Part shown: piece by piece, positions 2,704 to 39,584 of the stretch | Position numbering within the stretch: the stretch's first letter is position 1 | How the letters are laid out: every line of letters starts with the position of its first letter | Source of the DNA: Rickettsiaceae bacterium | GTDB taxonomy: Bacteria; Pseudomonadota; Alphaproteobacteria; Rickettsiales; Rickettsiaceae | Length of the DNA stretch: 40,684 bases | Assembly (NCBI GenBank): GCA_013214485.1 | Contig: JABSSF010000003.1 | Location: forward strand, 1 to 40,684 | Reading direction: 5' to 3' | The notes under the pieces: generated by a model | The model's database searches: none | The model's input: the letters and a program-made list of their open reading frames with translations, nothing else | What the model was told of the DNA's origin: nothing | Made by a program: the position numbers and the translations under genes

Positions 2704-3115
2704 AATAATATTATTTTTAATCATAACATTAGCTTTTACTAAAATAAGTTATAGTTATTATACAGATGAAGATATACCAATAACTACAGATAGTAGAATT
2801 AAACATTACATATATAGTGAAAATGAAGTATATTTATTAGTGTTACATGTTGGGTTTCAATCACATATTGAATTTGCTAAGAATGAAACTATACAAAGCT
2901 TGATTCCAGGGGATACTTACGCATGGAAATTAAATCCTATTGGTAATAGATTATTCATAAAGCCAATGGAAGATAATATGCAAACTAATATAACTATTAT
3001 CACTAATAAAAGAACATATCACTTTGATCTATCTTCAGTGCAGTTGATTGAAGGGCATGAAAAAGATTTAGTATATGTAATTAAGTTTCACTACCCAAGA
3101 AAGAAATCCAGGTAA
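2690..3115 (+). CDS. virB9: Short VirB9-like protein (N-terminal domain only, rvhB9b-like)
   Basis: Signal peptide plus about 115 aa. Lies between virB8 and virB10, with a 14-nt overlap with virB8. Motifs YLLVLHVGFQSHIEF and TNITIITNKRTYHFDL resemble the VirB9/CagX N-terminal domain. Confidence 0.7.
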   Translation: MIIVRIILFLIITLAFTKISYSYYTDEDIPITTDSRIKHYIYSENEVYLLVLHVGFQSHIEFAKNETIQSLIPGDTYAWKLNPIGNRLFIKPMEDNMQTNITIITNKRTYHFDLSSVQLIEGHEKDLVYVIKFHYPRKKSR

Positions 3116-3117
3116 TT

Positions 3118-7365: not shown

Positions 7366-7400
7366 ACTCTACTTAAGTAAAGTTAATATAGGGCAAAAAA

Positions 7401-8816: not shown

Positions 8817-8830
8817 GAAATAATTAAACG

Positions 8831-9367
8831 ATGTTGCATAATACAGAAAATTCTTATGGCCTTATTACTAGACTACTTCATTGGATTATAGCTTTAATGA
8901 TTCTAGGCTTACTTGTAGTTGGTTTTACTATGGAGAGCATGGAACCCTCTGAGCAAAAATGGCAATTATACGGTTATCATAAAGCTACGGGCTTTTTTGT
9001 TTTTACTTTAGTTGCTATACGTATAGTTTGGCGTTTGATTAATGTAGAAGTATTACTACCAAAAGATATTCCACATTGGCAAGCTATGGCCTCTAAAATA
9101 ACTCATTATTTATTATATTTATTTATGTTCTTAATGCCTTTTAGTGGCATAATGATGAGTCGTTTAGGTGGCCATAACATTAATGTTTTCGATTTGTTTA
9201 CTATACCAGCAGCAACTAAAAATCCAGAATGGGCTGGTATTTTTCATAAAACACATGGTCTTGCAGCATATGGTATATCTGCTTTTATATTACTACATAT
9301 TGGAGCAGCACTATATCACCATTTTATCCGTAAGGATAATGTGTTAATGCGGATGATAAAGGAATAG
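8831..9367 (+). CDS. cybB: Cytochrome b561 family protein
   Basis: Four TM helices with conserved histidines (LLHWIIA, YHKATG, FHKTHG, HIGAALYHHF). Confidence 0.8.
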   Translation: MLHNTENSYGLITRLLHWIIALMILGLLVVGFTMESMEPSEQKWQLYGYHKATGFFVFTLVAIRIVWRLINVEVLLPKDIPHWQAMASKITHYLLYLFMFLMPFSGIMMSRLGGHNINVFDLFTIPAATKNPEWAGIFHKTHGLAAYGISAFILLHIGAALYHHFIRKDNVLMRMIKE

Positions 9368-9399
9368 TTTTTAAGTTATTTTACAAAAATTTGTCATAT

Positions 9400-9438
9400 C
9401 TGGATTATCATGTCACCATAGGTAACTCGTGATGACGG
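9400..9438. repeat. RPE-like palindromic repeat core (inverted copy of 16412-16452)
   Basis: The reverse complement ccgtcatcacgagttacctatggtgacatgataatccag matches ccgtcatcacgagtcacctgtgggtgacgtggtgatccag at 16412-16451, about 85% identity by eye. It lies in the convergent spacer between cybB and ctaB. Confidence 0.65.
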
Positions 9439-9580
9439 TTTTCATTTTTCTTGGACACTAGTGTGCTTTCGCAGGGATGACAATGTGGATATCTTCTAAT
9501 AACCTTCAGATTAGCAGTAACTAGTTCAATGGTAGCGGATAAACCGCCTTCAACCAACTTGTCATCATCAAATAGTTACT

Positions 9581-10498
9581 TCAAAGAATTATAAGGCTTA
9601 AGAAGATAATGAAGAGATATAATATAGAGAACCAGAATAGTTTTTTAGCCTTTGCTAAATTATCATCCTTAAATAAACAGATAACATAATATAAGAAAGC
9701 AGCATCAAAGATACTAGCTATAATTAAATAACCGTGACCCCCCATATTATATATATATGGCATGATTGAACTTATTAATAGTAAAATAGTATAAAATAAA
9801 ATTTGCTTTTTAGTATAGGTAAAACCTTTAACAGCTGGCATCATTGGTACATTACAACTTTGATAATCTTTAGTTTTAAATATTGCTAGCGCCCAAGAAT
9901 GTGGCGGAGTCCAGAGGAAAATTATCATAAATAAAATTATGGCTTCTATGGAAATCTCACCAGTTACAGCAACAACCCCAATCATTGGTGGCAGAGCTCC
10001 TGCAACGCCACCTATTACAACATTCTGGATCGAATTACGCTTTAACCACATCGTATAAATGAAAATATAATATAAGATAGTAAATAATAACAATCCTGCT
10101 GCAAGAAAACTAACACAAAGTGCCATCATTAATACAGACATTACGGTAAGAACAATGCCAAAAGATAATGCTTCATCAGCCGCTATTTTGACTTGAACTA
10201 TTGGTCTTTTGCGTGTTCTAGTCATAATAGCGTCAATATCACGATCATACCACATATTAAGCGCTGCTGCTGCTCCTGATCCAGTCGTTACGCACAAAAT
10301 AGTAGCAAATGCAATTACTGGAGAAATAGTGCCTGGAGCTAAAATTATCCCACAAATAGCTGTAAATACTACCAAAGACATTACCCGAGGTTTCATCAAT
10401 AAGAAATAATCCTTAACCGAAGATGAGTCCACACTATCTGTGCTAGATTGCTCTAAATTTACTTTACTGCTTTGAGTTAAAGTTACTGATTTTTGCAT
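9581..10498 (-). CDS. ctaB: Protoheme IX farnesyltransferase (heme O synthase)
   Basis: UbiA-family polytopic membrane protein with [19 protein letters not shown]. Immediately downstream of ctaD. Confidence 0.9.
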
Positions 10499-10499
10499 C

Positions 10500-12089
<1,590 letters not shown>

Positions 12090-18682: not shown

Positions 18683-19458
18683 TGTTTACATATTCATTTT
18701 TAAAAAAATATTGGCAATCAGTCACTTTAATGATGACAACATCAATTGCTAAATATAATAAAAATACTTTTCTAGGCTCTTTTTGGAGCTTACTACAACC
18801 ATTTACTCATTTAGCAGTAATTTCTTTCTTTTTTAGTTTTTTACTCAGACAACCAACAAACAGAATCGTTGAAAATCTTGTTGGTGGTTTGCCTTTTTGG
18901 ACATATATTTCATCTAGTTTATTTGAAACAGCAAACTCCTTAGTTAGTAGAGCTGGTATTTTAAAAAAAGTTGTTATTTCTAAAACATATTTTCCCGTAG
19001 CAGATAGTTTAGTACATGTTTATAATTTGGCCTATACCTTTGTTGCTATGTATTTAGTGTTAATATTATTTTATCCAGAAAAATTTAGTATATTAGTCAT
19101 TTTTGTTCCATTACTTACCATCCCTTTAATTATTTCAATTATTGCTGTTGGAATTGCTGCTGCTTTCCTAACTCCTTATATCAGAGACATCCCTAGCCTG
19201 ATTAATGTTTTACTTAGTGTGATTTATTGGACAATACCAATTATCTATCCTTATACTTTGATTCCAGAATCAAAACGTTTTTTCTTTGACTTTCATCCAC
19301 TTTATATCTTAATTAGACCAATGCAAACTTTGGTTATTACTGGACAATTACCAGATATAATCATGATCTTCAAATCATGTATAGTTTGTTTGCTCAGCGT
19401 CATAGTTAGCTTTCTTATTTATAAAAAGTTAACTAGAAATGTAATATATTATTTATAA
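18682..19458 (+). CDS. ABC-2 type transporter permease (Wzm/TagG/RfbA-like)
   Basis: Six predicted TM helices and an N-terminal FLGSFWSLLQP motif. TAATG overlap with the ATPase gene. Confidence 0.8.
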   Translation: MFTYSFLKKYWQSVTLMMTTSIAKYNKNTFLGSFWSLLQPFTHLAVISFFFSFLLRQPTNRIVENLVGGLPFWTYISSSLFETANSLVSRAGILKKVVISKTYFPVADSLVHVYNLAYTFVAMYLVLILFYPEKFSILVIFVPLLTIPLIISIIAVGIAAAFLTPYIRDIPSLINVLLSVIYWTIPIIYPYTLIPESKRFFFDFHPLYILIRPMQTLVITGQLPDIIMIFKSCIVCLLSVIVSFLIYKKLTRNVIYYL

Positions 19459-22400
19459 TGCAGTTAAAATACGATCTTGATCTTCAGCAATTATATTCTC
19501 TATCTGGGCTTAAAAAATTAGAGCAATATTTTATTCAATTCTTAACTGAAAATAATTCTAAATTAGCTTTAAAATATCTAGAATTTCGCCAGCTCGCTGC
19601 AAGAAAGCCTAGCGAGTTAGATGCTACATTATACTCAGAATTATTGTTAGAAATTGCCACAATTTTTGATGAGTTTATCGCTAATTTATTTAATATTGAA
19701 TCAGAGAATTTAGCTTTGCAACAAACACATAATAAATTTGCCATTATCTATGAATGTCGGCGGAAATTTGTTAAGCGCTTTGCTGTTAAAAAATACCCAG
19801 TAGAAAAATTAACTGAAATTGATTTTACCAAAGTAAGTAAAGAATTAACTAAATTAATAGGTAATTTTAATGAAAGAAATTTTGCCAGGCATGTAATTAA
19901 TTGGCAATTAGATGAAGAAACTCATATAAAAGAGCTAGATATAGCTGCTAAATATGCTGCCTATATGGTGCATAATAATAGCTCTATTACTTTATTTAAT
20001 ATTGAAAAACTAATCGATCCTGCAAATCTAATTAGAAAACATAAAATCCAACAGTTACGCCAAGAATTATCTTTAGGTTTTGCTTATAGAGATCCAGAAA
20101 TTAATAAAGATACAGCTATAGCTGAGGCAAATTATTGTATTTATTGTCACAAACAAGGTAAAGATTCTTGCTCTAAAGGTTTTAGTAAAAGCCAATCAGA
20201 TAAATATCAATCACATAAACAAGTTAATAATGTTGTTGAAAAAAATGGTTGTCCATTAGAGCAAAAGATTTCTGAAATGAATAAAGTAATGACAGATGGT
20301 TATAATATTGCAGCACTTGCTATTATTATTATTGATAATCCTTTAGTTGCAGCAACTGGTCATCGTATTTGTAATGATTGTATGAAAGCTTGTATTTACC
20401 AAAAGCAAGATCCAGTAAATATCCCATTAATAGAATCAAAAATTCTTGATAATGTTTTGAATCTTCCTTATGGTGTGGAAATCTATTTATTACTTACTCG
20501 TTGGAATCCACTAAATATATTTAAGCCAATTTCCAAAGTAAATACTGGATATAATATTTTAGTAACAGGCCTAGGGCCTAGCGGTTTTGCATTATCACAT
20601 TATTTACTTAATGAAGGACATAGTGTGATAGCTATTGATGGGATGAAAATTGATCCCATAGATTTTGATATTTCTAAACCTATTAAAGATTGGCAAAAAA
20701 TCAAAGAATCATTAACTAAAAAAATACCTACAGGATTTGGTGGGGTTGCTGAATATGGTATTACTAATCGTTGGGATAAAAATAATCTGAGCTTGATTAG
20801 ATTAATGTTAGAGCGCCGTGATAATTTTAAATTATATGGTGGAGTACGCCTTGGCAGTAACATCCTAATTAATCAAGCCTTTAAACAAGGGTTCGACCAT
20901 ATAGCATTATGTCTTGGTGCAGGTAGCCCTAAATATTTAGCTGATATAGATTATTTCTTAAAAGGAGTACGTAGTGCTGCTGATTTTCTAATGAATCTAC
21001 AACAAGGTGGTGCTTTTTTGAAGACTAGTAATAGTAATTTAACAATCCGCATGCCAGCTATAGTTATTGGTCTTGGTTTAACAGCTATTGATAGTGCTTC
21101 AGAAATATTACATTATTATCCTGAATTAGTAGAAAATTTCTATAACAAATATGAAAAATTAACTAATAAATATAGTGAAGAATTTGTTAAGCAAAGTTGG
21201 AATGATGAAGATAAGGAAATTGCTTTAGAATATATTACTCACGCAAAATTATTTCGTCGAGCTAAAAATACGACAGAAAAACTGGCTATTTTAAATGATT
21301 TAGGTGGTGTTACTATTTGTTATCATAAAAAAATTATAGATTCACCTGCCTACAGATTAAATCATGAAGAAATAGAACATGCTATGGCACTGGGGATTAA
21401 ATTTCAAGAAGAAGCTAGTTTAAACAAGATAATTCCTGATAAAAATAATTATGCAAAATATGCCATTTTTAATGACGATTTGAAATTATCTGCTAGAACT
21501 ATAATTATGGCTATTGGGACAAAAAATAATGAGTTTAATGATATTGATTATGATTTTAATTCTACAAAATTTAGCCATTTTGGCGATTGTGATCCTAAAT
21601 ATACAGGCAGTGTAGTAAAAGCTTTAGCTAGCGTTAAAAATGGTTATCAAAATATCACTAAAAAACTACCAGCTAATCCTAGTTTTTCTGGTAGCTATGC
21701 TAAATTTACTAATAATTTAGAGCAAATACTAGTAAATCATATAGTAGAGATTAATATTATAGCTAAGAATGTTGTTGAGCTCATGATAGATGCTCCACAA
21801 CTAATTAAAAATTTTCAGCCAGGACAATTTTTCCGTCTGCAAAATTATAGTAAAGAACTAAACTCTCTAACAGAACCAATTGCTTTAACTGGTGCTTATG
21901 TTGATGAATCTAGGAAATTACTTTCATTAATTATTTTGGAAATTGGTAAATCAACTAAATTATGCCGTAATTTTAAAGTAGGTGACAAGATCAGCTTAAT
22001 GGGGCCTACTGGAGTAGCTACAAAAATTGCTAAAAATAAATCTATAGCATTAATCGGGGGGGGGCTTGGTAATGGAGTATTGTTATCTGTAGGAAAGGCT
22101 TTAAAAGAAAATGGTTGTCAAATTATTTATTTTGCAGGTTATCGCAAATTGCAAGATCGTTTCTATCCCGATAAAATTACTACCATTGCTGATAGGGTTA
22201 TTTGGTGCTGCGATGAAGCTAAACTTGATAAAGTTACAAAATCAGATTTATCAATTCATGGTAATATTCTTGATGGCCTTAAGTTTGCTAAAGAAAATAA
22301 GTTGGTTGATAAGGTAACAGAAATTATCTGTATTGGCTCTGATTCAATGATGCAAGCAGTAAGTAATAATTACAAAGAATATTTTAATAAGGATAGCAGG

Positions 22401-22616
22401 TTAATTTGTAGTCTAAATTCACCAATGCAATGTATGATGAAAGGTATTTGTGGTCAATGTCTGCAAAAAGTTAACTCGTCTGATGGTTATATTTTTTCTT
22501 GTAAAATGCAAGATCAAAGAGCTGATATTATCGATTTTACTGTACTAAAAAACCGTTTAGGGCAAAACTCCTTACTAGAAAAAATTAGCTTAGTTTATGT
22601 GAATTCTGAGAATTGA
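19458..22616 (+). CDS. Large fused flavoprotein: helical N-domain + GltD/NfnB-like Fe-S and FAD/NAD(P) oxidoreductase + PyrK/NfnA-like ferredoxin-reductase domain with a C-terminal 2Fe-2S motif
   Basis: Cys clusters CIYCHKQGKDSC...GCPLEQKI and HRICNDCMKAC. Dinucleotide fold ILVTGLGPSGFALSHYLLNEGHSVIAIDG. PyrK-like PGQFFRL, LMGPTG, IGGGLGNG. Terminal CMMKGICGQCLQKV...FSC. Confidence 0.7.
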   Translation: MQLKYDLDLQQLYSLSGLKKLEQYFIQFLTENNSKLALKYLEFRQLAARKPSELDATLYSELLLEIATIFDEFIANLFNIESENLALQQTHNKFAIIYECRRKFVKRFAVKKYPVEKLTEIDFTKVSKELTKLIGNFNERNFARHVINWQLDEETHIKELDIAAKYAAYMVHNNSSITLFNIEKLIDPANLIRKHKIQQLRQELSLGFAYRDPEINKDTAIAEANYCIYCHKQGKDSCSKGFSKSQSDKYQSHKQVNNVVEKNGCPLEQKISEMNKVMTDGYNIAALAIIIIDNPLVAATGHRICNDCMKACIYQKQDPVNIPLIESKILDNVLNLPYGVEIYLLLTRWNPLNIFKPISKVNTGYNILVTGLGPSGFALSHYLLNEGHSVIAIDGMKIDPIDFDISKPIKDWQKIKESLTKKIPTGFGGVAEYGITNRWDKNNLSLIRLMLERRDNFKLYGGVRLGSNILINQAFKQGFDHIALCLGAGSPKYLADIDYFLKGVRSAADFLMNLQQGGAFLKTSNSNLTIRMPAIVIGLGLTAIDSASEILHYYPELVENFYNKYEKLTNKYSEEFVKQSWNDEDKEIALEYITHAKLFRRAKNTTEKLAILNDLGGVTICYHKKIIDSPAYRLNHEEIEHAMALGIKFQEEASLNKIIPDKNNYAKYAIFNDDLKLSARTIIMAIGTKNNEFNDIDYDFNSTKFSHFGDCDPKYTGSVVKALASVKNGYQNITKKLPANPSFSGSYAKFTNNLEQILVNHIVEINIIAKNVVELMIDAPQLIKNFQPGQFFRLQNYSKELNSLTEPIALTGAYVDESRKLLSLIILEIGKSTKLCRNFKVGDKISLMGPTGVATKIAKNKSIALIGGGLGNGVLLSVGKALKENGCQIIYFAGYRKLQDRFYPDKITTIADRVIWCCDEAKLDKVTKSDLSIHGNILDGLKFAKENKLVDKVTEIICIGSDSMMQAVSNNYKEYFNKDSRLICSLNSPMQCMMKGICGQCLQKVNSSDGYIFSCKMQDQRADIIDFTVLKNRLGQNSLLEKISLVYVNSEN

Positions 22617-23716: not shown

Positions 23717-25447
23717 CTACTTATTATTATTTTGACCATAAACCAATTTAATTTTAGGAAATATAATTTTCACTTTTGTGCCTTCTCCTTTTTTACTTGT
23801 TATGATCAAACTAGCATCATGGGCATCTAATAACATTTTAACAATAGGTAACCCTAAGCCATATGATCCTCTAGAATGACTATTACTTCCTACTATACCA
23901 TAAGTACTTAAAGCTATTTCTATTTCATGTTCGTCCATACCAATACCTTCATCAATCACAGTTATTACTATCGTTTCTTCTACTAATTCTGCAACAATAT
24001 TTATATTGGTATTATCATTAGAATATTTGATAGCGTTACTGACTAAATTACTAAATATTTGTAACATTCGCCGCTTATCACAAATCACAAGCGGTAAATC
24101 TTTACTAAGCTTCTGATTAACAGTAATTTTTCTTTGATTATATCTTGCCAAATTAACTTTAATAGCTTCTTTTATAATGCTTTTAATATCTGCTGTGGAA
24201 TTAACAATTCTAAATCTTCCTTCAATTATTTGATTATCATCAAGTATATCAGTAATAAAATCGAGAATAATTTTTGAATTTTGGTGAATACCTTCAGCAT
24301 ATTTCATATAAGCTGCTGGCAAGTTACCTAACAATTCTTTTTTCATAATTTCTGAACCAGTTAAAATAAAACCAAGGGGAGATCTTACCTCATGCGCTGT
24401 AAAAGCAAGAAAATCAGTTTTAGCTTGTGTCGCATTATTAGCAACTATTGTTGCTTTTTCTGCTTTTTCTCGAAGTACTGCTTCTCTTTTATATAAAGAA
24501 ACTATTGAGAAAAAACAAACAATAGCAAGCACAGCCACTTCAATAAATCTTCTTGCAACGCTATCTAAAATATTTTGCTTGATAACATTATCATCAATAT
24601 TAACAATAATGATAAATGGCAAGCCACCTAAAGGTTTGATGTAGTAATTAATGCCATTAATCATATCTAGATAATGATGATCTGAATTGCTTTGTTTAAT
24701 TTTTAGATCTTTAATAATAGATTTCAAATTATTTGCAAGACCATTTTCATCAACTACATTATTAATGACTTCTTTGGATCTAGCAATAACATTATAATCA
24801 GTATCTATAATAATAAAATTAGCATCAATATTTCTTTTTATACTATTAAGACTTCTAACCAAAGTACCAATATCATAACTAAGTATTACTGAGCCTATAT
24901 ATTTATTACTATTTCCATCAACAATACTATCAATTATTTTCAGCTTACGTTCTTTTTCTTGAAAGCCAGTATAAAATGAAATTCCATAAGGATTACGTTT
25001 TGAAGGTGTTTTTACTATATCTTTTACATATTTTAAAAACTGAAAATTTTTTTTAAAATTTTTATTACTAGTAGCAACCTCCTTGAAATCTTTATTTACC
25101 CAACTATATTTGCGCCAACCAAAAAAATAGTTCAAATCTCGAGATTTAAAATTTTCCTGCAATAATTTTCTGATATATCGTGTATCATTGTGATGCTCCT
25201 TGATAGATTTTGAAATAATTCTAATAAAATACTGTGAGTAATTAATGCGATCTGTAAGTACTGTACCCAGATTGCTAGCTTCAATTTTTAACTCTTGTAA
25301 TACTAATTCTTTATTATTATGATATGTTCTAAAAAAATATAATAAAGTAAGACAAATAACTACAAATATAATTATTATTGTCAAAATATGAATATTCAGA
25401 TTATACCCCAAATGTTTTTTTTCCTTGTAATTACGATTTTTATTCAT
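23717..25447 (-). CDS. Sensor histidine kinase with a large periplasmic (Cache-like) domain; no adjacent response regulator
   Basis: TM1, about 250 aa periplasmic, TM2. H-box FLAFTAHEVRSPL, N-box SNLVSNAIKYS, G-boxes DEGIGM and GLGLPI. Confidence 0.9.
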   Translation of the reverse strand: MNKNRNYKEKKHLGYNLNIHILTIIIIFVVICLTLLYFFRTYHNNKELVLQELKIEASNLGTVLTDRINYSQYFIRIISKSIKEHHNDTRYIRKLLQENFKSRDLNYFFGWRKYSWVNKDFKEVATSNKNFKKNFQFLKYVKDIVKTPSKRNPYGISFYTGFQEKERKLKIIDSIVDGNSNKYIGSVILSYDIGTLVRSLNSIKRNIDANFIIIDTDYNVIARSKEVINNVVDENGLANNLKSIIKDLKIKQSNSDHHYLDMINGINYYIKPLGGLPFIIIVNIDDNVIKQNILDSVARRFIEVAVLAIVCFFSIVSLYKREAVLREKAEKATIVANNATQAKTDFLAFTAHEVRSPLGFILTGSEIMKKELLGNLPAAYMKYAEGIHQNSKIILDFITDILDDNQIIEGRFRIVNSTADIKSIIKEAIKVNLARYNQRKITVNQKLSKDLPLVICDKRRMLQIFSNLVSNAIKYSNDNTNINIVAELVEETIVITVIDEGIGMDEHEIEIALSTYGIVGSNSHSRGSYGLGLPIVKMLLDAHDASLIITSKKGEGTKVKIIFPKIKLVYGQNNNK

Positions 25448-27439: not shown

Positions 27440-28302
27440 TCATTTCGATTGACAAGTGTATAATTTAAAGGAGTGATCAATAGTTTGTTGTAGTGTATCA
27501 AATTGTGAGATAGTATTTTTTACTTTTTCTTTTAAATTAGCCCAAAATTTCTCTATTGGATTAAGATCTGGTGAATATGGTGGTAAAAACATTATTTTGC
27601 ATCCAGCACTTTCAATTAATTCTTTTGTTTTAAGTGATTTATGGAATGCTGCATTATCCATTATTACTAACTGTCCTGGTTTCAGCTCTGGCAATAAAAT
27701 CTTCTCTAGCCAAATATTAAATAATCCCGTGTTACACGTTCCTTGATAACAAAAAGGCGCCATAATTTTAGTACCACACTTAGCTGCTACAAAGCTCTCT
27801 CTAGCATAGCGTTTTCCAGAGTTTGTACCATGAACCAACTCTCCCCGTTTAGCCCAACCATGGGATTTATTTAAAAAACAATCTATCCCACTTTCATCAA
27901 TATAAACAAGGTTATCCTTAGATATATTTTTTATATTTTCTGTAAATATTTTTCGTTTTTTTTCATCCCGCTCTTTATACAGTATAGTCTTTTTTTTCTA
28001 GTAAAGCCCAAGCGTTTTAAAGCATCCCATACGCAGCTGATTGTTACGCCAAAATGGTTAGCATAATCTTTAATATATAAATCTGGATTAATTGTTACGT
28101 ATTCCTTTAAAAGCTAAGGGTTCAGCTTTCTCCATCCTCTTTTTAAAGGAGCATCTTCCAAATTACCATTTTGCTCAAGCATATCTAGCCATTTGTTCAG
28201 TGTCACTACTGATATTTCAAATAAACTACATGATTTTGATTGATTATTGCTTTTTTTATAGTGAGCAATTACACGTTTTCTGAATATTATTGGATATTTC
28301 AT
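27440..28302 (-). pseudogene. IS630-family DDE transposase, interrupted
   Basis: N-terminal HTH ORF (28114-28302) ends at an in-frame TAG at 28114-28116; copy 1 reads GAT (Asp) there. The downstream part needs a -1 frame change at the A8 run. The C-terminal part carries the DDE region (IMDNAAFHK, LPPYSPDLNPIEKFW). Confidence 0.8.
27990..27997 (-). promoter_or_regulatory. A8 slippery run at the junction of the two transposase frames (candidate programmed -1 frameshift or transcriptional slippage site)
   Basis: On the coding strand, act aga aaa aaa aga read in the -1 frame after the run gives KKK TILYKERDEKKR... and continues into the DDE domain. An identical T8 run on the plus strand is present in copy 1 at 12-19. 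Confidence 0.55.
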
Positions 28303-28515: not shown

Positions 28516-28833
28516 CTAATAAAGAGTTAATACTAATTTTTTATTTAATTTATTTTCAAGGATTACTTCATTTTCAGTAATTTCTGTTATAGTATAGATA
28601 TTATCTACAGTACTTCCTACATTAAAAATTTTACCATTAATCACACAAACTTTCTCATTTTCACTATCAACAATTGCAGAAAGCATATATTCTTTTTGTA
28701 ATTTTTTGGGAATATTTTTAACTTTTTCTTGTTTTGGCTTCATCGGGTCTATTAGCTTTTCTTCTGCCATACAATCGGGTTTTATAAAAAAAATAATTTG
28801 TATAATAATAATTTTAATTATTCTTACTTTCAT
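28516..28833 (-). CDS. PilP/MshK/GspB-like small periplasmic protein
   Basis: N-terminal hydrophobic leader. The C-terminal pattern LSAIVDSENEKVCVINGKIFNVGSTVDNIYTITEITENEVILEN...LVL is typical of MshK/PilP-type proteins. Last gene of the module. Confidence 0.45.
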   Translation of the reverse strand: MKVRIIKIIIIQIIFFIKPDCMAEEKLIDPMKPKQEKVKNIPKKLQKEYMLSAIVDSENEKVCVINGKIFNVGSTVDNIYTITEITENEVILENKLNKKLVLTLY

Positions 28834-29311
28834 ACAAACTCCTTAATTGTAATGATATATATAATGAATTATTTTTTTGTATTTTTAATTTTAAAGAGTC
28901 CAGACGGTAAAACATATTATTTTCATTTAAATGGATTAAATATTTAAGTAAACTAATATAATTACCTTCTAAAGACAGAGAATATCCAGCCTCTATAATA
29001 TCATTATTCTCCGGCATTATCGTATAACTAGATTTTTGGTTAAATATTTTTATATTATAAAGCGAAATAATATCGCTAAAATTCTCCTGAAGAACAAACG
29101 GAGCAGTAATTAGCATTGGATCTCTATAAGAGCTTATAAATCTATTATTTGCTTTATATTCCAAATAATTATTTAACATTTTTTTACCCTCATAAAATAA
29201 GGTAAAAATAATCAATATGTTAATAATAAAAAAACTATAAATTCTTAGCTGATAAAACGACTTCAGCTTCAAAATTATAGAAGATGCTACTATTCTCATC
29301 ATCCTCTTCAT
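28814..29311 (-). CDS. PilO/MshJ-like bitopic membrane protein
   Basis: One TM (IYSFFIINILIIFTLFY). C-terminal YSLSLEGNYISLLKYLIHLNENNMFYRLDSLKL...LYISLQL resembles the PilO/GspM fold signature. Overlaps the upstream gene by up to 77 nt. Confidence 0.45.
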   Translation of the reverse strand: MKRMMRIVASSIILKLKSFYQLRIYSFFIINILIIFTLFYEGKKMLNNYLEYKANNRFISSYRDPMLITAPFVLQENFSDIISLYNIKIFNQKSSYTIMPENNDIIEAGYSLSLEGNYISLLKYLIHLNENNMFYRLDSLKLKIQKNNSLYISLQLRSLYESKNN

Positions 29312-29810
29312 TATTATCCTCTAATGAATTTATGCCTTTATCTTTAAGAAATAACGCCACCGCAAAAGGCACGGGTGGTTTTTCTTGCTCCTCCTCTTCT
29401 TCCTCGATTTGTATTTGCTCTTTATTTTTAATCTTAACCGTTATAATTTGTACCTTTGCAAATTCTACTATTGAATTTAGATAGTCTTCAATTTCATCAT
29501 AATTAAGCGATCTGAGTGTAAGGAAAATTTCATTGCCTTCTAATTTCATCTTATGTACCCATAGATTCATAGTTTGCACCTTAGTAAATGCACTCATTAT
29601 TTCGATATATCGTGAAGATGATATCAGCATTCTATCATTTTGCATTTTTATTAATAAACTAGCTTTTCTACCTACGGATTCTTCATAATGTGGTACTAGC
29701 CATTTAATATTTGAATAATACATTCCCGCCACCATTAAAATTAAAATAAAAAATAATTTATATGACCCCAAAGGAAAAATAATTTTATTCTTTATCAATT
29801 CTTTTGCCAT
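29235..29810 (-). CDS. PilN/MshI-C-like bitopic membrane protein with an acidic insert
   Basis: Start moved to the internal ATG at 29810 (MAKELIK), just after the upstream stop. One TM. KMKLEGNEIFLTLRSLNYDEIEDYLNSI matches the PilN ferredoxin-like pattern. Contains an EEEEEEQEKPP insert. Confidence 0.5.
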   Translation of the reverse strand: MAKELIKNKIIFPLGSYKLFFILILMVAGMYYSNIKWLVPHYEESVGRKASLLIKMQNDRMLISSSRYIEIMSAFTKVQTMNLWVHKMKLEGNEIFLTLRSLNYDEIEDYLNSIVEFAKVQIITVKIKNKEQIQIEEEEEEQEKPPVPFAVALFLKDKGINSLEDNNEEDDENSSIFYNFEAEVVLSAKNL

Positions 29811-29814
29811 AAAA

Positions 29815-30831
29815 CTATTTTTTATTAACCCATTCATTTATTACTTTAGAGGCTAATTCCTTATTTATTGGTTTGAATATAACACTATTCATATCTACTT
29901 CCTTACAGTGTTTTACATAAGCCTCTGAATGGTTAGAAGTTAATCCAATAATTGGAATCCTTTTTAAATTTAATTCCTTTTCTCGTTGACGTATATTTAA
30001 AGTACATTCAAATCCATCCATTATAGGCATTTCACAATCCATGATAATTAAATCATAATCATGATTTTTTTCTAAATTATGTAAGGATTGTTGTGCGTTT
30101 GTTGATATTTCTACAGAAAGTTTTTGTTTAATTAATATAGATTTTAGAATTTTAGCATTTACCTTATTATCCTCAATGACTAACACTTTTTTAACATTCT
30201 TGTTAACTAATGGCATAATTATGAGCCAATATGTAAAAAGAATTAATATTAAACCTACTACTAGAGTAAATAACAATAACACTATTTCCACATGATATTT
30301 CATTAAATTTTTATCTTGATTGCAGGAACTAAAATTACTATCTAAATCAGTTAACAATTTATCTTTTATATATTCCAGTGAGGCTAAAAGATTTGGTTTT
30401 AAAGATTCATTAGAATTATCAGCTTCTATAAGATTTTCTGCATATTCTATAAGATTATTTACATCTTTAACTCTATTGGTAAAATTTAAATAATCTACTT
30501 TTTCCTTTGTTGTACCATTACTTAAATTAACTGATTTAATACAGATTAAAGAATCATTTAATGATTTCAATAACCTAGTATCTGTTATAATATTATCCTT
30601 TAAACATGAGCGAACATTTTGATCTTCAGTAAAAACTATATTAGTTGCGGTTATGGCGATTTTCTCAACCAAGATTCTATGCTTGGAAGCTAAATTAGAT
30701 TCAATTAAACTATTGTTAAAACTAAATATCAAAGATATTAATATAATGTATAATGATATCAATATCATTATCATTGTGAAGTTAATAGCTTTATATTTTT
30801 GTTGTAAAAATTCGTTTATTTGATGAATCAT
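29815..30831 (-). CDS. Membrane-anchored stand-alone receiver (REC) domain protein: TM, about 150-aa extracytoplasmic domain, TM, REC
   Basis: TM1 MIMILISLYIILISLIFSF and TM2 LLLFTLVVGLILILFTYWLIIMPL. About 8 aa after TM2 a complete CheY-like receiver begins (VLVIEDN, DLIIMDCEMPIMDG, IIGLTS, FKP). No HisKA/HATPase and no output domain. Confidence 0.8.
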   Translation of the reverse strand: MIHQINEFLQQKYKAINFTMIMILISLYIILISLIFSFNNSLIESNLASKHRILVEKIAITATNIVFTEDQNVRSCLKDNIITDTRLLKSLNDSLICIKSVNLSNGTTKEKVDYLNFTNRVKDVNNLIEYAENLIEADNSNESLKPNLLASLEYIKDKLLTDLDSNFSSCNQDKNLMKYHVEIVLLLFTLVVGLILILFTYWLIIMPLVNKNVKKVLVIEDNKVNAKILKSILIKQKLSVEISTNAQQSLHNLEKNHDYDLIIMDCEMPIMDGFECTLNIRQREKELNLKRIPIIGLTSNHSEAYVKHCKEVDMNSVIFKPINKELASKVINEWVNKK

Positions 30832-30967: not shown

Positions 30968-32695
30968 TTAAAGTTTATATGACCCAATATCCTCTCTATC
31001 ATCAAAACTATTCACTATAGTTGGTTTTATAAGTACTATAACTTCTATTTTTTTACTGGCATTTCTGTTAGCAGAAAATAAATTAAAAATACGTCCTATT
31101 CCTTTATCATGTTCAAATGGTAAACCAGACCTATTAGTACTTACCATATCTTGAGTCATTCCTCCTAATATAATTATATCACCACTAAATGATTTAACTA
31201 CAGTATCAACTTCCCTGGATAAAATCATTGCTACAGGTATCCTTGAATCCCTATTATCAATCTTAATTAATTTATCTTCATCATCTACTCTACTAATCAT
31301 CGGATGAATGTGCATTATTACTTCATCATTACTTATAATATTAGGAGTTGCTTCTAATGCAACACCAGAAAAGATTGGCTCTAGGTCAAACCCCGATTGA
31401 GTATTAGCATTATCGGAATTTAAATTAGTTGTCAGGTTAGTAACATTAGTGACAAAATATTTATCCTCACCACTTTTTATTAAAGCTCTTTGATTATTTA
31501 AAACTGCAATACGCGGCGATGAAATCACTGATAATTTACCTTGAGTTTTCAATGCTTGCATTACCATATTAAAATCTTTTGCCGCAATTCTACCACTTAA
31601 AACATTATTTAAACTTAATTCATCTCCAGCAATATTAGAAGTATTATGTAAATTATTAATAGAGTCAAACGGAGCACTTACTGCTGCAAGTGATGATTGC
31701 CTTAGATCATTTTTTAACGTATCCCATTGAATGCCATTACTAAATTCTTCTCTTAATTCTACTTCCAGTATTTTAGCTTCAATTATTATTTGCCTTGTCG
31801 AATTCTTATTTACTTTATTTAAAAAATTCTTAATTAACCTTTGCTGACTTGGCATAGCACTTACAACTACTAGACCACTTTCACGATAAACATAAAATTC
31901 CTCAACTTTATTATCTCTATCATTATTTGTACTTGTTACTAAACTAGCTGGAGTAGATGCAGTTTGCCCTGTTGGTTGCCCTTCTCCTGTTACATCTATT
32001 AAAGCTATCGTATTTTTTGTTGTTGATTTTAAAATACTTCTAATAGTATTTTCTACGCTACCCCAAAAATTATCTTCTGACTCTGATTTTATAGTAGAAT
32101 AATTATCGCTTTCTTCATCTTCTTTAAGGGTGCTGCTAACAATAGAAATTGATGATTTTCCTTTCCTCTTAAAATTATGATAATTAACTTCATAAGTAAT
32201 GGTTTGTATTTGTGGTAAATATAAAGTATAACCATAATCTAAATCTTTTACACCAATATCATATATTTCTGTTAAACTATCCAGTACATCAGCTAAACAA
32301 ACATCATGTAAATTCAAAGTCAGTCCTTTAGCTTGGTTTAAATTTGCTGCATAGTTAATATTTTCTTTATAGGTATAGCTTAATAAAGTTGCTAATTCCC
32401 TTAATTTAATATCTTTAGTAACAATATTAGCTTTTTTGCATAAAGGACGTTGCTCTTTAAATGGATTGTCAAAAACTAAAACATTGTTCTCAGATGAGTC
32501 TTTTTCATTCTTATAAAATTCATTAAATTTTTTGATATCATTAGTAAATTTTTCTGAATATTTAGTAGTACTACAACTATTTAAAAACAAAAAAGTAATT
32601 ATAATATAAGGAATAACTCTCTTTTTATAAAAAAAGTATAAAGAATTCAGACTTAAATTCTTTATACTTTTAAATTGTGGTTTATAAAATAACAT
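30968..32695 (-). CDS. Secretin, MshL/PilQ type, probable lipoprotein
   Basis: Start placed at the internal ATG 32695, 4 nt after the upstream stop. Lipobox-like FLFLNSC. Secretin core QIIIEAKILEVEL, VISSPRIAVLNNQRALIKSGEDKYFVT, LEATPNI, IIILGGM, GLPF, VIVLIKPTIV. Confidence 0.85.
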   Translation of the reverse strand: MLFYKPQFKSIKNLSLNSLYFFYKKRVIPYIIITFLFLNSCSTTKYSEKFTNDIKKFNEFYKNEKDSSENNVLVFDNPFKEQRPLCKKANIVTKDIKLRELATLLSYTYKENINYAANLNQAKGLTLNLHDVCLADVLDSLTEIYDIGVKDLDYGYTLYLPQIQTITYEVNYHNFKRKGKSSISIVSSTLKEDEESDNYSTIKSESEDNFWGSVENTIRSILKSTTKNTIALIDVTGEGQPTGQTASTPASLVTSTNNDRDNKVEEFYVYRESGLVVVSAMPSQQRLIKNFLNKVNKNSTRQIIIEAKILEVELREEFSNGIQWDTLKNDLRQSSLAAVSAPFDSINNLHNTSNIAGDELSLNNVLSGRIAAKDFNMVMQALKTQGKLSVISSPRIAVLNNQRALIKSGEDKYFVTNVTNLTTNLNSDNANTQSGFDLEPIFSGVALEATPNIISNDEVIMHIHPMISRVDDEDKLIKIDNRDSRIPVAMILSREVDTVVKSFSGDIIILGGMTQDMVSTNRSGLPFEHDKGIGRIFNLFSANRNASKKIEVIVLIKPTIVNSFDDREDIGSYKL

Positions 32696-32699
32696 TAAT

Positions 32700-33266
32700 T
32701 TATCTTCCGCCACCACTTGGAAGTCCACCGCCTGAGAATAAATTCTCATAATTAATATATGTACAAACTGACAAATATTTATTATCGGTTTCATCTCTGA
32801 TAAATGACGCAGTGAATTCTTTAGTACTGTTACTTCCCATAAATTCTTCTACATTTCTATCGGCATTAGTTAAACATTCCCAAGCAGTAATTTTTTCATC
32901 CTTGTGATTATAAATAGGAATTAAAAGTATCTGCTTACCTAATAATGCTTTAGCTACTGGTGTAACATGACCTTTACTACCTTTTTTTGCCATACCATTA
33001 AATTGAAATTCAATTTTATAGTCTTTAGAAATATTTAATATTGTAATATAAGGATTTTCTTCATTTTTTAACACACTATACGTACTTCTTAAGTGGTTAC
33101 CATGATTTTCCTCATAAAGACGCTCAGCCTGCTTTACTGCTCCGTAGATTGCGCTATCAACATTGCTTAGAGTAGCTTTTGCACCTGCTAATTTAGCACC
33201 AAAAGCTGTACTAGTTGTTAGAGCTAAGATAGTTCCAGTTAGTAAACATAAAGTTTTTTTCTTCAT
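32700..33266 (-). CDS. Type IVa pilin head-domain-like protein with a Sec-type signal peptide instead of a prepilin leader
   Basis: MKKKTLCLLTGTILALTTSTAFG then AKATLSNVDSAIYGAVKQAERLY (alpha1-C-like). C-terminal ITAWECLTNAD...KYLSVCTY resembles the disulfide-bonded D-region (WxC...KYLPxxC) of PilA/PilE. No G/FTLIE motif and no Glu5. Confidence 0.5.
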   Translation of the reverse strand: MKKKTLCLLTGTILALTTSTAFGAKLAGAKATLSNVDSAIYGAVKQAERLYEENHGNHLRSTYSVLKNEENPYITILNISKDYKIEFQFNGMAKKGSKGHVTPVAKALLGKQILLIPIYNHKDEKITAWECLTNADRNVEEFMGSNSTKEFTASFIRDETDNKYLSVCTYINYENLFSGGGLPSGGGR

Positions 33267-33601: not shown

Positions 33602-34327
33602 ATGAAGAAATGTATCACAACTGTATTTTATTTACTAGATAATTTTTGTAAAGAATATGAAAAATGGCAAAATAAAAATCTCTTACCACAAAATGGTATA
33701 AGAAAACGAGAAGGAAAATTACGACTTTCAGAGTTATTAACTATAGTGTTATATTATTATTTATCTCCCTGTAAAGACTTTAAGAACTACTATTTATATT
33801 ACTTATCAAGTAAATATAAAGGTTATTTTAAATTACCATGTTACAGTCGTATAGTACAACTAATGCCAAGACTTATACTACCATTATCAATAGTAATGCA
33901 AATCTTATCAGGAAGAGAAACAGGCACTTATTATATTGATTCTACAAAATTACAAATATGTCATAATAAACGAACTTCTAGTAATAGAGTTTTTAATAAA
34001 ATTTCTAAATTAGGACGCAGTAGTTATGGCTGGTTTATGGGATTTAAACTACATATGATAATTAATAATAAAGGAGAAATTATGGCAATAAAAATTAGCA
34101 AAGAAAATAAAAGTGATCTATCAGCAGTTAAAGATTTAGTTAAAGGATTAAACGGTACTATTTATGGGGATAAGGGATACATTTCCCGAAAACTATTTGA
34201 AGAGTTATATAGTTCTGGACTAAAGATATTTACTAGTATACGTAAGGATATGAAAAATCACTTACTTAATAATAGTGATAAATATTTTATGCGTAAAAGG
34301 GTTTTAATTGAATGTGTTTTTAAATAA
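33602..34327 (+). mobile_element. IS982-family transposase gene, 3'-truncated (remnant)
   Basis: The N-terminal and DDE-region pattern (YIDSTKLQICHNKR, GWFMGFKLHMIIN, IYGDKGYIS) is typical of IS982. The ORF stops at ...LIECVFK, roughly 50 aa short of family members as I recall them. Element ends were not identified. Confidence 0.65.
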
Positions 34328-36811: not shown

Positions 36812-38323
36812 ATGCAAAAAGCTATTAAAGCAATTATATTATCTAGAGTATCATCAAAAGATCAAGAAGATGGTTATTCATTAGAAGTACAAACAGATAG
36901 ATTAGAAAAATATTGCGATCGCAGGGGACTTCATATTATCAAACGTTATCAAATAGTAGAATCTTCTACTAAAGGAGACCGCAAGCAATTTATGGAAATT
37001 ATTAAATTTATTAAGTCGCAGCGTGAACCGATAGCATTTGTTGCAGATAAGGTTGATAGAATACAAAGAAGCCAAAAAGAAACCCCCATATTAGATGATA
37101 TGATAAGACAAGGGAAATTAGAATTACATTTTAATAGCGAAAGTTACATTATTCATCAGGAATCAAGCGCTCACGAGTTAATGATGTGGGGTATGGGAGT
37201 TGTAGTTGCTAAAAGCCATACTGATTTACTCAGTGAAAATGTCAAAAAAAGTTTAAAACGTAAAGTAGAAGCCCATGGAGAGTGGTATGGCTCAGCACCT
37301 ATAGGCTATTTAAATCAACGTGATCAGCGTGGTAGGGGTATAATAGTTACTGACCCTATATCGGCATCAATTGTTACAAAATTATTTGCAGAATTTGCAA
37401 CTGGAGTTTATACTTTATCACAAATGGTAACAAAAGCTAAAGAATGGGGGTTACGCAGTAAAAAAGGGGGGTATGTAAATAAGTCTGTTCTACATCGTAT
37501 GTTTAGAAACCCTTTTTATTATGGTCAAATGAGATTTAAAGGCGAACTATGGACACATAACTATGAGAGATTAACTACAATAGAAACATTTAAAAAATGC
37601 GAGGCAACACTTATGGGCTGGAAGAAAAAACCTTTTCAATATCGAGGTAAAGAATTCTTATTTAGAGGTTTATTAACTTGTAAGACAACTGGCAAATTGG
37701 TTCTTAGTGATACTAAAGTAAAGAAATACCCAAGTCGCAAAAAATCAGAGTGGACTTATTTAATAGCATATGACCCAAAAAACTCAAAAAAGAAAATTTG
37801 GGTAAGAGAAGACAAAGTTATCAAACAATTAGAAGAAGTACTAAAAAATTTAGCTATAAAAGATGAAAAAATCCTAAAACAAACCATGGAGTATTTAACA
37901 GCGGTAAATGAAGGCAAAAAACACGATTTTAATAGAGAAGTTGGTGCATTAAAGCAAGAACACGCAAATATTCAGAATAAGCTTGATAAGCTATTAGATT
38001 TACTCGCTGAAGGGGTTTTGACTAAAGAGGAATTTTTAACCAAGAAAAATAAATATAAAGAACGTCAGCACGAGTTAACAGAATTATTACAAACTTATGA
38101 CAAGATTGATGATAAATTTTCTAAAAAGCTGCTAGAGGTTATAAACATTACTAATGAAGTTTATGATACTTTTAAGGGTTCAAAAATTTCTGAAAAAAGG
38201 CAATTATTAAAGTTCATGTTCTCGAACCTTTTTCTGGGGCAGCGGAGTGCTAGAGTACAGCTGGACTTTTCCATATCTAGTGAACTGGCAAAATTAACCA
38301 ATTGTGTACTTCCTGAGAGATAG
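36812..38323 (+). CDS. Large serine recombinase (resolvase/invertase catalytic domain + recombinase domain + coiled coil); 3' end probably altered by IS insertion
   Basis: Catalytic region AIILSRVSSKDQEDGYSLEVQ, VADKVDRIQRS. Recombinase domain PIGY, NPFYYG. C-terminal coiled coil. The last roughly 9 codons lie inside the IS481 left end. Confidence 0.85.
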   Translation: MQKAIKAIILSRVSSKDQEDGYSLEVQTDRLEKYCDRRGLHIIKRYQIVESSTKGDRKQFMEIIKFIKSQREPIAFVADKVDRIQRSQKETPILDDMIRQGKLELHFNSESYIIHQESSAHELMMWGMGVVVAKSHTDLLSENVKKSLKRKVEAHGEWYGSAPIGYLNQRDQRGRGIIVTDPISASIVTKLFAEFATGVYTLSQMVTKAKEWGLRSKKGGYVNKSVLHRMFRNPFYYGQMRFKGELWTHNYERLTTIETFKKCEATLMGWKKKPFQYRGKEFLFRGLLTCKTTGKLVLSDTKVKKYPSRKKSEWTYLIAYDPKNSKKKIWVREDKVIKQLEEVLKNLAIKDEKILKQTMEYLTAVNEGKKHDFNREVGALKQEHANIQNKLDKLLDLLAEGVLTKEEFLTKKNKYKERQHELTELLQTYDKIDDKFSKKLLEVINITNEVYDTFKGSKISEKRQLLKFMFSNLFLGQRSARVQLDFSISSELAKLTNCVLPER

Positions 38324-39572
38324 TATGCAGAAAATTCCGAAGACATAGTATACACTTTTTTCATTTGCGAGGTAGCATATGACATGGAAGGAGTGTAGTA
38401 AAATGGACGAGAAATTAAAGTTTGTAGCAAGATTGTTAGAAGGAGAAAAGATTGCAGTGTTATGCCGTGAGTTTGGTATTACAAGGCGCACAGGTTATAA
38501 GATATTTAATCGCTATAAAGACTACGGTCTTGAAGGCCTTCAAGACCGTAGTGGCAAGCCCTATAGACATGCAAATCAATTACCATACCAAATTGAGAGA
38601 GCAATATTGGGTATAAAGAAGGAATATCCAAGTTGGGGAGCCCCTAAAATTAAGGAAAAATTGTTACGTCAATTTCCTGATATTAAACATCCTGCTATTA
38701 GCACAATACATGCGGTGCTAGATCGTAATGGTTTAGTAAAAAGACAAAAACGTAGACGATATAAAGCACAAGGAACAGAGCTTCTGGAACATAACAGCAT
38801 CAATAGTCTTTGGTGTTGTGACTACAAAGGAGAGTTTATGCTTGGTAATAAAGAATATTGTTACCCTTTGACCATTACAGATTATCATTCACGATATTTG
38901 CTTGCTTGCGAAGGGCAAGAATCTACAAAAGAACAAGGAGCATTTGCTGTTTTTGAAAGCGTTTTTAGAGAGTTTGGATTACCTGATACTATTCGCAGTG
39001 ATAATGGTATACCTTTTGCATCTCCAAATGCCTTATATGGTTTAAGCAAATTATCCGTTTGGTGGCTTAGACTCGGCATAAAAATAGAAAGAATTAAACC
39101 TGGTAACCCTCAACAAAATGGCCGTCACGAACGAATGCATAGAACTCTAAAACAAGATACTGCCAAACCTCCAGCATTTAATCTTCTGCAACAACAAGAA
39201 AAATTTGATCATTTTCAGAAAGTATACAATTATGAGCGTCCTCATCAAGCTATTGCTAACAAATACCCTGCAGAACTGTATACACCTTCTACTAGAGTTT
39301 ATAAAGGATTACCAGATATTGATTATCCTTTTGCTGATAAAATTGTTACCATTACAAAATGTGGAAGAATATGTATTGGAAAAAAGAAAATCAGTGTAAG
39401 TAGTGTATTTGCTGGACAAAATGTTGGTATTTCTCAAGTTGATGATAAAATTTGGCTTGTACAATTCATGCTTTATGATATAGGATACTTTGATATGGAT
39501 ACTTGTAGGCTAGAACCTATTGATAATCAGCTTACCTCGAAACTGTATACCATGCCTCCAGAATGTACCATT
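38296..39572 (+). mobile_element. IS481-family insertion sequence
   Basis: Imperfect terminal inverted repeats: left aaccaattgtgtacttcctgagagatagtatgcag; reverse complement of right aatggtacattctggaggcatggtatacag. Flanked by a 7-bp direct repeat caaaatt (38289-38295 and 39573-39579). Alternative boundaries 38298-39581 (ccaatt/aattgg) cannot be excluded. Confidence 0.6.
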
Positions 39573-39584
39573 CAAAATTGGTGA
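38403..39584 (+). CDS. IS481-family DDE transposase (integrase core domain)
   Basis: Start at the internal ATG 38403 after aaggag. N-terminal HTH (IAVLCREFGITRRTGYKIFNRY). DDE triad contexts WCCDYKG, IRSDNGIPF, NGRHERMHRTLK. The stop codon lies 3 nt inside the tRNA 3' end. Confidence 0.85.
   Translation: MDEKLKFVARLLEGEKIAVLCREFGITRRTGYKIFNRYKDYGLEGLQDRSGKPYRHANQLPYQIERAILGIKKEYPSWGAPKIKEKLLRQFPDIKHPAISTIHAVLDRNGLVKRQKRRRYKAQGTELLEHNSINSLWCCDYKGEFMLGNKEYCYPLTITDYHSRYLLACEGQESTKEQGAFAVFESVFREFGLPDTIRSDNGIPFASPNALYGLSKLSVWWLRLGIKIERIKPGNPQQNGRHERMHRTLKQDTAKPPAFNLLQQQEKFDHFQKVYNYERPHQAIANKYPAELYTPSTRVYKGLPDIDYPFADKIVTITKCGRICIGKKKISVSSVFAGQNVGISQVDDKIWLVQFMLYDIGYFDMDTCRLEPIDNQLTSKLYTMPPECTIQNW

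Follow-up and report, generated by a model that had tools for sequence, protein, structure and literature searches.

Secretin machines (type IV pili, type II secretion and competence systems) are thought to need a cytoplasmic ATPase module that is coupled to the secretin via proteins of the PilM/GspL type. PilM itself, from the pilMNOPQ operon of type IVa pili, is a soluble, actin-like ATP-binding protein. The stretch of DNA analysed here, the whole of which we call the window, comprises 40,684 nucleotides (nt) of contig JABSSF010000003.1 (assembly GCA_013214485.1) from a Rickettsiaceae bacterium. It contains a secretin gene accompanied by genes for small, PilN/O/P-like proteins, and the place usually held by pilM is taken by a gene for a membrane protein that ends in a CheY-like receiver domain. 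What is a receiver doing at this position, and does it belong to the secretin machine at all? We conclude that the protein is a conserved sensor-receiver without a kinase, and its membership in a cassette of five to six genes in uncultured Rickettsiales is well supported. The best explanation that we can offer, and we offer it tentatively, is that this protein is integrated in the secretin cassette and confers phosphorylation-dependent switching.

The domain layout of the protein is the foundation of this argument. Kyte-Doolittle hydropathy reveals two hydrophobic stretches (residues 13-43 and 176-213) with about 145 residues in between, and both fall on long helices (14-67 and 142-210) of an AlphaFold2 (AF2) model. 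Two further predicted helices (71-101 and 108-137) lie between them, and the last of the four helices leads directly into a (beta-alpha)5 domain. The model was built from three homologues and has a mean predicted local distance difference test score (pLDDT) of 73.7 and a predicted template-modelling score (pTM) of 0.40. The C-terminal domain is a receiver: residues 216-326 match Pfam Response_reg (PF00072) with an E-value of 9.4e-23, no other Pfam family passes, and the modelled domain superposes on solved receivers with Foldseek target TM-scores of 0.85-0.91 and root-mean-square deviations of 1.4-1.7 Å. Given that the match starts at residue 216, the first beta-strand begins 4-8 residues past the second transmembrane helix (TM2). 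A preliminary description of this DNA, made from the sequence alone, had proposed two transmembrane helices around an extracytoplasmic domain of about 150 residues, followed within about eight residues by a complete CheY-like receiver; both proposals are borne out. The phospho-acceptor pocket is entire, with E220, D221, D265 (within the motif MDCEMP), T298 and the pair K320-P321 all present and invariant across eight lineages.

The receiver most resembles those of hybrid kinases. Its best Foldseek matches are the GacS D1 receiver, receivers of fungal hybrid kinases and that of Sln1; its NCBIfam matches are limited to the receiver parts of LuxQ, BarA, ArcB, RcsC and TorS; and its beta-4 motif, IIALTAN, is of the generic hybrid-kinase type. 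Scans of Pfam and NCBIfam found no HisKA, HATPase_c, HPt or effector domain in the protein at E<=1. The earlier contention that it is neither a hybrid kinase (there is no DHp/CA core) nor a classical response regulator (there is no effector) thus stands. Without a kinase core, the protein should be incapable of autophosphorylation. The same two scans gave no match to an actin-like ATPase fold or to the PilM Pfam domain; the predicted fold is a four-helix bundle plus a receiver. It is well supported that the sensor-receiver has a short cytoplasmic N-terminal tail, a periplasmic bundle and a cytoplasmic receiver with an intact phospho-acceptor pocket, and its predicted domains and their layout are no chance pattern.

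The periplasmic domain belongs to no sensor family that direct Pfam or NCBIfam scans could detect at E<=1, and its identity came only from an exhaustive profile search and from hhalign. A profile of three N-terminal halves, scored exhaustively against 1.84 billion representative proteins, gave 40 matches. The strongest (P0085, P0086 and P0089) have the same order of sensor, transmembrane helix and receiver. The remainder are histidine kinases, hybrid kinases and diguanylate cyclases, and in each of these distant matches that was scanned, the aligned region is PF13675, the “PilJ” P-box domain common to NarX, NarQ and PilJ. In hhalign, a seven-member family profile aligned with 30 sensor domains of the PF13675 type over 184 columns (probability 99.2%, E-value 6.7e-20). 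The P-box itself is only partly retained. The family segment a..NK.L.ERIALLS aligns to the canonical P-box SGRQRMLSQRIAL; relative to the canonical pattern G-R-x-R-M-L-S-Q-R, the L, (S), E/Q, R/K, I and A are kept, the glycine and the first arginine are gone, and the second arginine is a lysine in most family members. On these comparisons, we consider it well supported that the domain is a four-helix bundle of the NarX/NarQ/PilJ type with a degenerate P-box, and structure prediction returned the four helices of such a bundle. A word-indexed homologue search with a seven-sequence N-terminal profile recovered four members already known and nothing further. Two cysteines of the bundle, C76 and C97, are 21 residues apart and invariant in all members. 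The P-like protein of the cassette, for its part, carries a single invariant cysteine, C63. Disulfides between subunits are possible.

The search for proteins with this architecture yielded eight lineages, the members of which are all unnamed in their sources. They are 22-58% identical overall, yet they keep the kinase-less architecture, the junction between TM2 and the receiver (a spacing of a few residues, up to about 12) and every pocket residue. HisKA and HATPase are absent from all members that have a Pfam result, namely the window protein, P0001, P0002, P0004, P0085, P0086 and P0089; the members from loci L015, L017, L019 and L020, which were outside the Pfam scan, are the same in length and in the TM2-receiver junction. 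For the whole gene, the ratio of non-synonymous to synonymous substitution rates (dN/dS) comes to 0.26 between two members that are 95% identical and to 0.19 between two that are 59% identical. Its halves are both constrained, the sensor having a ratio of about 0.23 and the receiver one of about 0.12. The sensor-receiver gene is under purifying selection and is a conserved member of the cassette.

These homologues also suggest where the protein came from. P0087 and P0091 are P-box hybrid kinases with the layout sensor-HisKA-HATPase-REC-REC-HPt (REC denoting a receiver). They rank best or near-best among the distant N-terminal matches, and their phosphorelay receiver shares 43-47% identity with the receivers of the family members P0002 and P0085. 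Because both ends of the sensor-receiver resemble P-box hybrid kinases, loss of the DHp/CA core and of the HPt domain is the simplest origin. Sequence likeness thus indicates that the sensor-receiver probably arose through an old loss of the kinase core from a P-box hybrid histidine kinase.

The association of the sensor-receiver with the secretin genes was traced with a local hidden Markov model for each cassette protein, run over all fetched loci. Three gene orders emerged. In the first, secretin-REC-N-O-P-pilinlike, the cassette is found in L001, L015, L017 and L020 and partially in L004, L006, L007 and L012; in the second, pilinlike-secretin-REC and onward, it is found in the window and in L019; and in the third, REC-N-O-P-pilinlike-secretin, it is found in L008 and L009, which are marine loci. 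All three permutations leave the block REC-N-O-P unbroken, and the third order mirrors pilM-N-O-P-(x)-Q, with the receiver gene in the place of pilM. In every locus that bears the receiver gene and whose contig extends past it, this gene lies directly upstream of the N-like gene. The two reading frames overlap by 4-26 nt in seven loci (23 nt in the window), and a gap of 7 nt separates them in L020. Further, the receiver family was never found outside the cassette among the loci examined. A contig profile search with the secretin contributed one partial locus, L005. In DNA as AT-rich as this, a promoter and terminator scan of the cassette was uninformative; it gave 44 promoter-like sites against 41 expected by chance and no terminators.

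The window cassette is bracketed by mobile-element genes at 27440-27838, 33602-34327, 36812-38323 and 38379-39584 (a transposase fragment, an IS5-type DDE transposase, a recombinase-like open reading frame and an IS481-type integrase), and their presence may be the reason that the pilin-like gene precedes the secretin gene there. In L029, the secretin is 88% identical to that of L015. Comparison of L029 6361-6460 with L015 7497-8572 reveals that the first 41 nt of the receiver gene are kept and are followed by a deletion of about 1 kb that reaches the 5' end of the N-like gene; the pilin-like gene of this locus (7941-8258 onward) is frameshifted by a short duplication. On this evidence the L029 cassette is evidently decaying, its receiver gene having been deleted alongside a broken pilin-like gene.

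The partner proteins can be assigned with differing confidence. The N-, O- and P-like proteins have one N-terminal hydrophobic segment each, and their topology and gene order fit PilN/PilO/PilP (or GspL/M/C). The P-like family gives sub-threshold matches to CdsD_C (four of six members, best E-value 3e-7), T2SSB (three of six) and, weakly, T2SSC. Sequence-profile searches of the PDB with the pilin-like, N-, O- and P-like families produced nothing meaningful. We regard the label “PilN/O/P-like” as reasonable but weak. The secretin is identified by PF00263 (E-value 2.3e-27) and Secretin_N_2 (3.8e-5) in Pfam, and its best NCBIfam model is TIGR02519, MshL, at 207 bits, which is under the cut-off of 250. 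The open reading frame listed for it (30968-32794, minus strand) overlaps the pilin-like gene; the ATG at 32695 sits 4 nt past the pilin-like stop codon. A lipobox-like LNSC 38-41 residues after this putative start suggests that the secretin is a lipoprotein.

The pilin-like protein is the best conserved member of the cassette, with about 50% identity where the receiver proteins share 22-31%, and it has 43 homologous clusters, all unnamed. It has a Sec-type signal peptide that ends at an A-x-A-type site; neither a class III leader, nor a G/F...E5 motif, nor a hydrophobic alpha1-N helix is present in it. In its AF2 model (pLDDT 82.7, pTM 0.77), a long helix packs against a beta-sheet, and the top four Foldseek matches of this model in the PDB are type IVa pilins, with probabilities of up to 0.96 and E-values of only 0.05-0.13. 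The likeness to pilins is restricted to the head domain. An invariant W-E-C...C pair is similar to the pilin D-region. Tandem pilin-like paralogues in two to three copies occur in L013 (883-2911), L015 (9983-11312), L016, L021 and L027, and single copies with no cassette nearby are found in L014 and L022. The coordinates of the cassette genes in the window, and of the parts of the sensor-receiver, are collected in Table 1.

Table 1. Cassette genes of the window and the segments of the sensor-receiver
Feature	Position	Strand	Basis
Kinase-less sensor-receiver, 338 aa: first transmembrane helix (TM1), P-box four-helix bundle, TM2, receiver	29815..30831	-	Open reading frame, Pfam, AF2, eight homologous lineages
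TM1 (about aa 19-38)	30718..30777	-	Hydropathy; AF2 helix 14-67
Periplasmic P-box/PilJ-type four-helix bundle (about aa 39-182); degenerate P-box aa 48-59; invariant C76 and C97	30286..30717	-	Profile search, hhalign, AF2
TM2 (about aa 183-210)	30202..30285	-	Hydropathy; AF2 helix 142-210
Receiver (aa 215-335); pocket E220, D221, D265, T298, K320; hybrid-kinase-type beta-4 motif	29827..30189	-	Pfam, NCBIfam, Foldseek, alignment
N-like bitopic protein, 200 aa; transmembrane segment aa 18-39	29235..29837	-	Hydropathy, weak PilN match, synteny
O-like bitopic protein, 165 aa; one transmembrane segment	28814..29311	-	Hydropathy, weak PilO match, synteny
P-like small exported protein, 105 aa; C-terminal beta domain, conserved L-x-DPM motif	28516..28833	-	CdsD_C, T2SSB, T2SSC, synteny
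MshL-like secretin, probably a lipoprotein; open reading frame to 32794, likely start ATG 32695	30968..32695	-	Pfam, NCBIfam, sequence
Pilin-like protein, 188 aa; Sec signal peptide	32700..33266	-	Homologues, AF2, Foldseek

How might such a protein act in a secretin machine? We propose that the sensor-receiver probably dimerises, as other P-box sensors do, and that it probably joins the inner-membrane platform formed by the N-, O- and P-like proteins. Its receiver would probably be phosphorylated in trans by a kinase or an HPt protein encoded elsewhere. Since the protein has no effector of its own, its phosphorylation would have to take effect by way of contacts with other proteins. Such contacts could be made in the cytoplasm, with the tail of the N-like protein, or in the periplasm, with the signal passing via TM2 and the bundle. 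By either path, the activity of the cassette would be switched, e.g. the opening of the secretin or the handling of the pilin-like protein. Further, the periplasmic bundle could make phosphorylation of the receiver depend on a periplasmic cue. Phosphorylation-dependent control of the secretin machine is a plausible hypothesis. The notion that the bundle senses the pilin-like protein, by analogy with PilA and PilJ, is speculation only, and the PilA-PilJ sensing model is itself contested.

Several observations count against this explanation. The preliminary description placed the gene in the PilM position, upstream of a PilN-like gene and next to PilN/O-like partners. The position has held in every locus that extends far enough; the identity of PilN and PilO is only weakly supported, the Pfam matches being sub-threshold for both the N-like family (PilN, E-value 0.017, two of six members) and the O-like family (PilO, E-value 0.0055, one of six). 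When the N-, O- and P-like profiles were compared by hhalign with HofN, HofO and HofP of E. coli, no probability exceeded 1%, which is not significant, and what was left was a motif-level echo (L-x-DPM versus R-DPF). Conservation is poor in the cytoplasmic tail of the N-like protein, where no motif of the PilM-binding type can be recognised, and the association of the sensor-receiver with the N-O-P platform is one that we infer. The AF2 model of the sensor-receiver derives from three sequences, with the scores quoted above, and it puts the invariant C76 and C97 on one helix, an unexplained placement. No phosphodonor has been identified for the receiver. Receivers of the hybrid-kinase class have been argued to be passive phospho-shuttles without allosteric output (PMC9981736). 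Finally, L025 has a divergent but intact cassette without the receiver gene, so the machine is not strictly dependent on that gene. This cassette (6738-11439, in the order pilinlike-secretin-N-O-P) shares its 12.4-kb contig with a Rep3 replication initiator and IS21 istA/istB, and may thus be plasmid-borne.

Some of these same facts favour a different account, a close rival that we consider somewhat less likely than switching of the secretin machine. The sensor-receiver could be a node in a phospho-relay, or a phosphate sink, that reports a periplasmic state (the load of pilin-like protein, or secretin stress) to the cell. The bundle would tune phosphoryl exchange between the receiver and an HPt protein or kinase elsewhere, and the output would be made by a distal response regulator. 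In kinases and cyclases, the P-box domain is a genuine sensor of ligands; the sensor-receiver has no effector domain of its own, and the L025 cassette is intact without it. A receiver of the intermediary, hybrid-kinase class, described as a passive shuttle (PMC9981736), fits the role of relay or sink better than that of a switch. However, neither an HPt protein nor a hybrid kinase was seen in the window or in any flank, and the close adjacency to the N-like gene, usually with overlap, suggests a physical complex. This account also overlaps with the one we favour, and sequence alone can hardly tell the two apart.

The question of a phosphodonor bears on both accounts. The nearest candidate had been an orphan histidine kinase of the Cache type at 23717-25447. 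It is a kinase (HisKA, E-value 1.2e-7; HATPase_c, 1.7e-20; both from Pfam), and it lies between rodA and cysS; the assignment to the Cache type is weak, as dCache_1 scores 22.8 bits against a cut-off of 45. In none of the other loci is this kinase syntenic with the cassette. With no link between the two, the proposal that it is the donor is unsupported either way. We also considered ChpT, of the alphaproteobacterial CckA-ChpT pathway. Receivers coupled to ChpT carry a FATGUY motif, which is present in CpdR, MrrA and CckA-Rec (PMC9981736). The sensor-receiver has IIALTAN in beta-4 instead, so this pathway is a less likely donor and ChpT was downgraded as a candidate; the same difference tells against the relay account.

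A bolder form of the switching proposal, and an unlikely one in our estimation, is that the cassette is a self-contained secretin machine of host-associated Rickettsiales that has lost its motor. The sensor-receiver would have replaced the cytoplasmic PilM/ATPase module. A pilin-derived protein that has lost the helix needed for polymerisation and reaches the periplasm via Sec would be exported or displayed on the surface via the secretin, under a switch thrown by aspartyl phosphorylation and not under the drive of a pilus ATPase. Neither the 40-kb window (in which smaller open reading frames were not scanned) nor the flanks of L006, L015, L017, L025 and L029 contained a pilus ATPase, a platform protein, a prepilin peptidase or a true prepilin. 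Rickettsiales scatter their operons, so absence from the flanks does not amount to absence from the genome.

More doubtful still is the idea that the protein is a structural subunit only, its receiver fold serving as a cytoplasmic scaffold that replaces PilM as the anchor for the N-like protein, with no role for phosphorylation. Receiver-like domains that work without phosphorylation do exist in pilus systems, namely the atypical receiver of TadZ/CpaE and that of FrzS. The gene is in the pilM position, and FrzS is among the Foldseek matches of the receiver, at rank 36. Pseudo-receivers typically lose pocket residues, however, and here the five pocket residues and the K-P cis-peptide pair are invariant in eight lineages that are only 22-58% identical. 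We give very little weight to the proposal that this is a stand-alone signalling gene that happens to lie beside secretin genes. The receiver-less cassette of L025 and the mobile-element genes around the window cassette would be in keeping with it; it does not account for adjacency to the N-like gene in eight lineages and three gene orders, usually with overlapping frames, or for the failure to find the receiver family outside the cassette. Lastly, that the gene is a recent truncation or pseudogene of a hybrid histidine kinase, to which the resemblance of both its ends to P-box hybrid kinases might point, is scarcely credible and can be treated as ruled out, given the same junction in eight lineages, a dN/dS of about 0.2 and no homologue with a HisKA/HATPase core.

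With regulated switching of the secretin machine retained as the leading explanation, the protein can be compared to known systems. NarX, NarQ and PilJ likewise have two transmembrane helices that flank a periplasmic four-helix bundle of about 150 residues. They differ in that TM2 leads to HAMP-DHp-CA or MCP modules there and straight into the receiver here; further, the P-box of the sensor-receiver is degenerate and escapes a direct Pfam match, and its invariant cysteine pair is extra. The P-box hybrid kinases P0087, P0091 and P0102, of the class of BarA/GacS/TorS/LuxQ, have a homologous sensor and a homologous receiver of the phosphorelay type, but their HisKA, HATPase_c, second receiver and HPt domain are absent from the sensor-receiver. 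With PilM, the protein shares a gene position immediately upstream of an N-like gene and the location of a part of it on the cytoplasmic face; there is no relation in sequence or fold, PilM being soluble and the sensor-receiver a two-pass membrane protein.

Other pilus-associated systems are similarly instructive. The MSHA operon has the order mshI-J-K-L. The present cassette resembles it and the type IVb secretin lipoproteins in having a secretin that matches MshL best and carries Secretin_N_2, together with small bitopic N/O/P-like partners. It differs in that the MshL match is below the cut-off, no MshI/PilM, ATPase, platform protein or true prepilins are nearby, and the pilin-like protein uses Sec. 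TadZ/CpaE, FrzS and PilG/PilH also tie a CheY-fold domain to a pilus or secretin machine. The receivers of TadZ and FrzS are soluble and without a functional pocket, and PilG and PilH, which ChpA feeds, are soluble proteins similar to CheY; the sensor-receiver, by contrast, has a complete pocket, is embedded in the membrane and brings its own periplasmic sensor. Single-domain receiver hubs such as CpdR, MrrA, DivK and Spo0F also lack an effector domain and act by phosphotransfer or protein contacts; they differ in being soluble, and the FATGUY motif of CpdR and MrrA is missing here (PMC9981736).

The literature that we could search on pili and secretins of Rickettsiales and on membrane-anchored response regulators contained no description of a sensor-transmembrane-receiver protein in a secretin or pilus cassette, or of this cassette in Rickettsiales. 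Each component has precedents, as P-box sensors, hybrid-type receivers, secretins and N/O/P-like proteins are all familiar; their combination is not. The cassette puts a two-component receiver with its own periplasmic sensor at the position of the PilM/GspL-type proteins, and pairs it with a pilin-like protein that is predicted to be no longer able to polymerise. If the cassette is indeed one unit, it would represent a direct phosphorylation input into a secretin platform, a natural case of a sensor joined directly to a receiver with no kinase in between, and possibly an organelle for host interaction in poorly known, uncultured Rickettsiales. If the machine also proved to be motor-less, this would be a previously unrecognised way to run a secretin. 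With only five to six genes, the cassette should be tractable for heterologous reconstitution.

The surroundings of the cassette have features of their own. The window resembles Rickettsiales DNA, with a G+C content of about 30%, virB8-B9-B10-B11-virD4 (1969-7365), fliP and cox genes; a TLC ATP/ADP translocase is encoded in one related locus. The cassette adjoins this rvh cluster of vir genes in several lineages (L006, 141-5454; L005, 146-1085; L029, 633-2091); in the window, the two are about 21 kb apart. In L017 (4527-9114), genes for chaperone-usher fimbriae, namely SCPU (spore-coat-U), PapD and usher genes, come after the cassette, and virB4 comes next. Elsewhere in the window, a 1052-residue open reading frame (19458-22616, plus strand) lies between ABC transporter genes and rodA, and the gene that immediately precedes the rvh cluster (659-1816, plus strand) specifies a protein of the Fic/DOC family that has a winged-helix region at its C-terminus.

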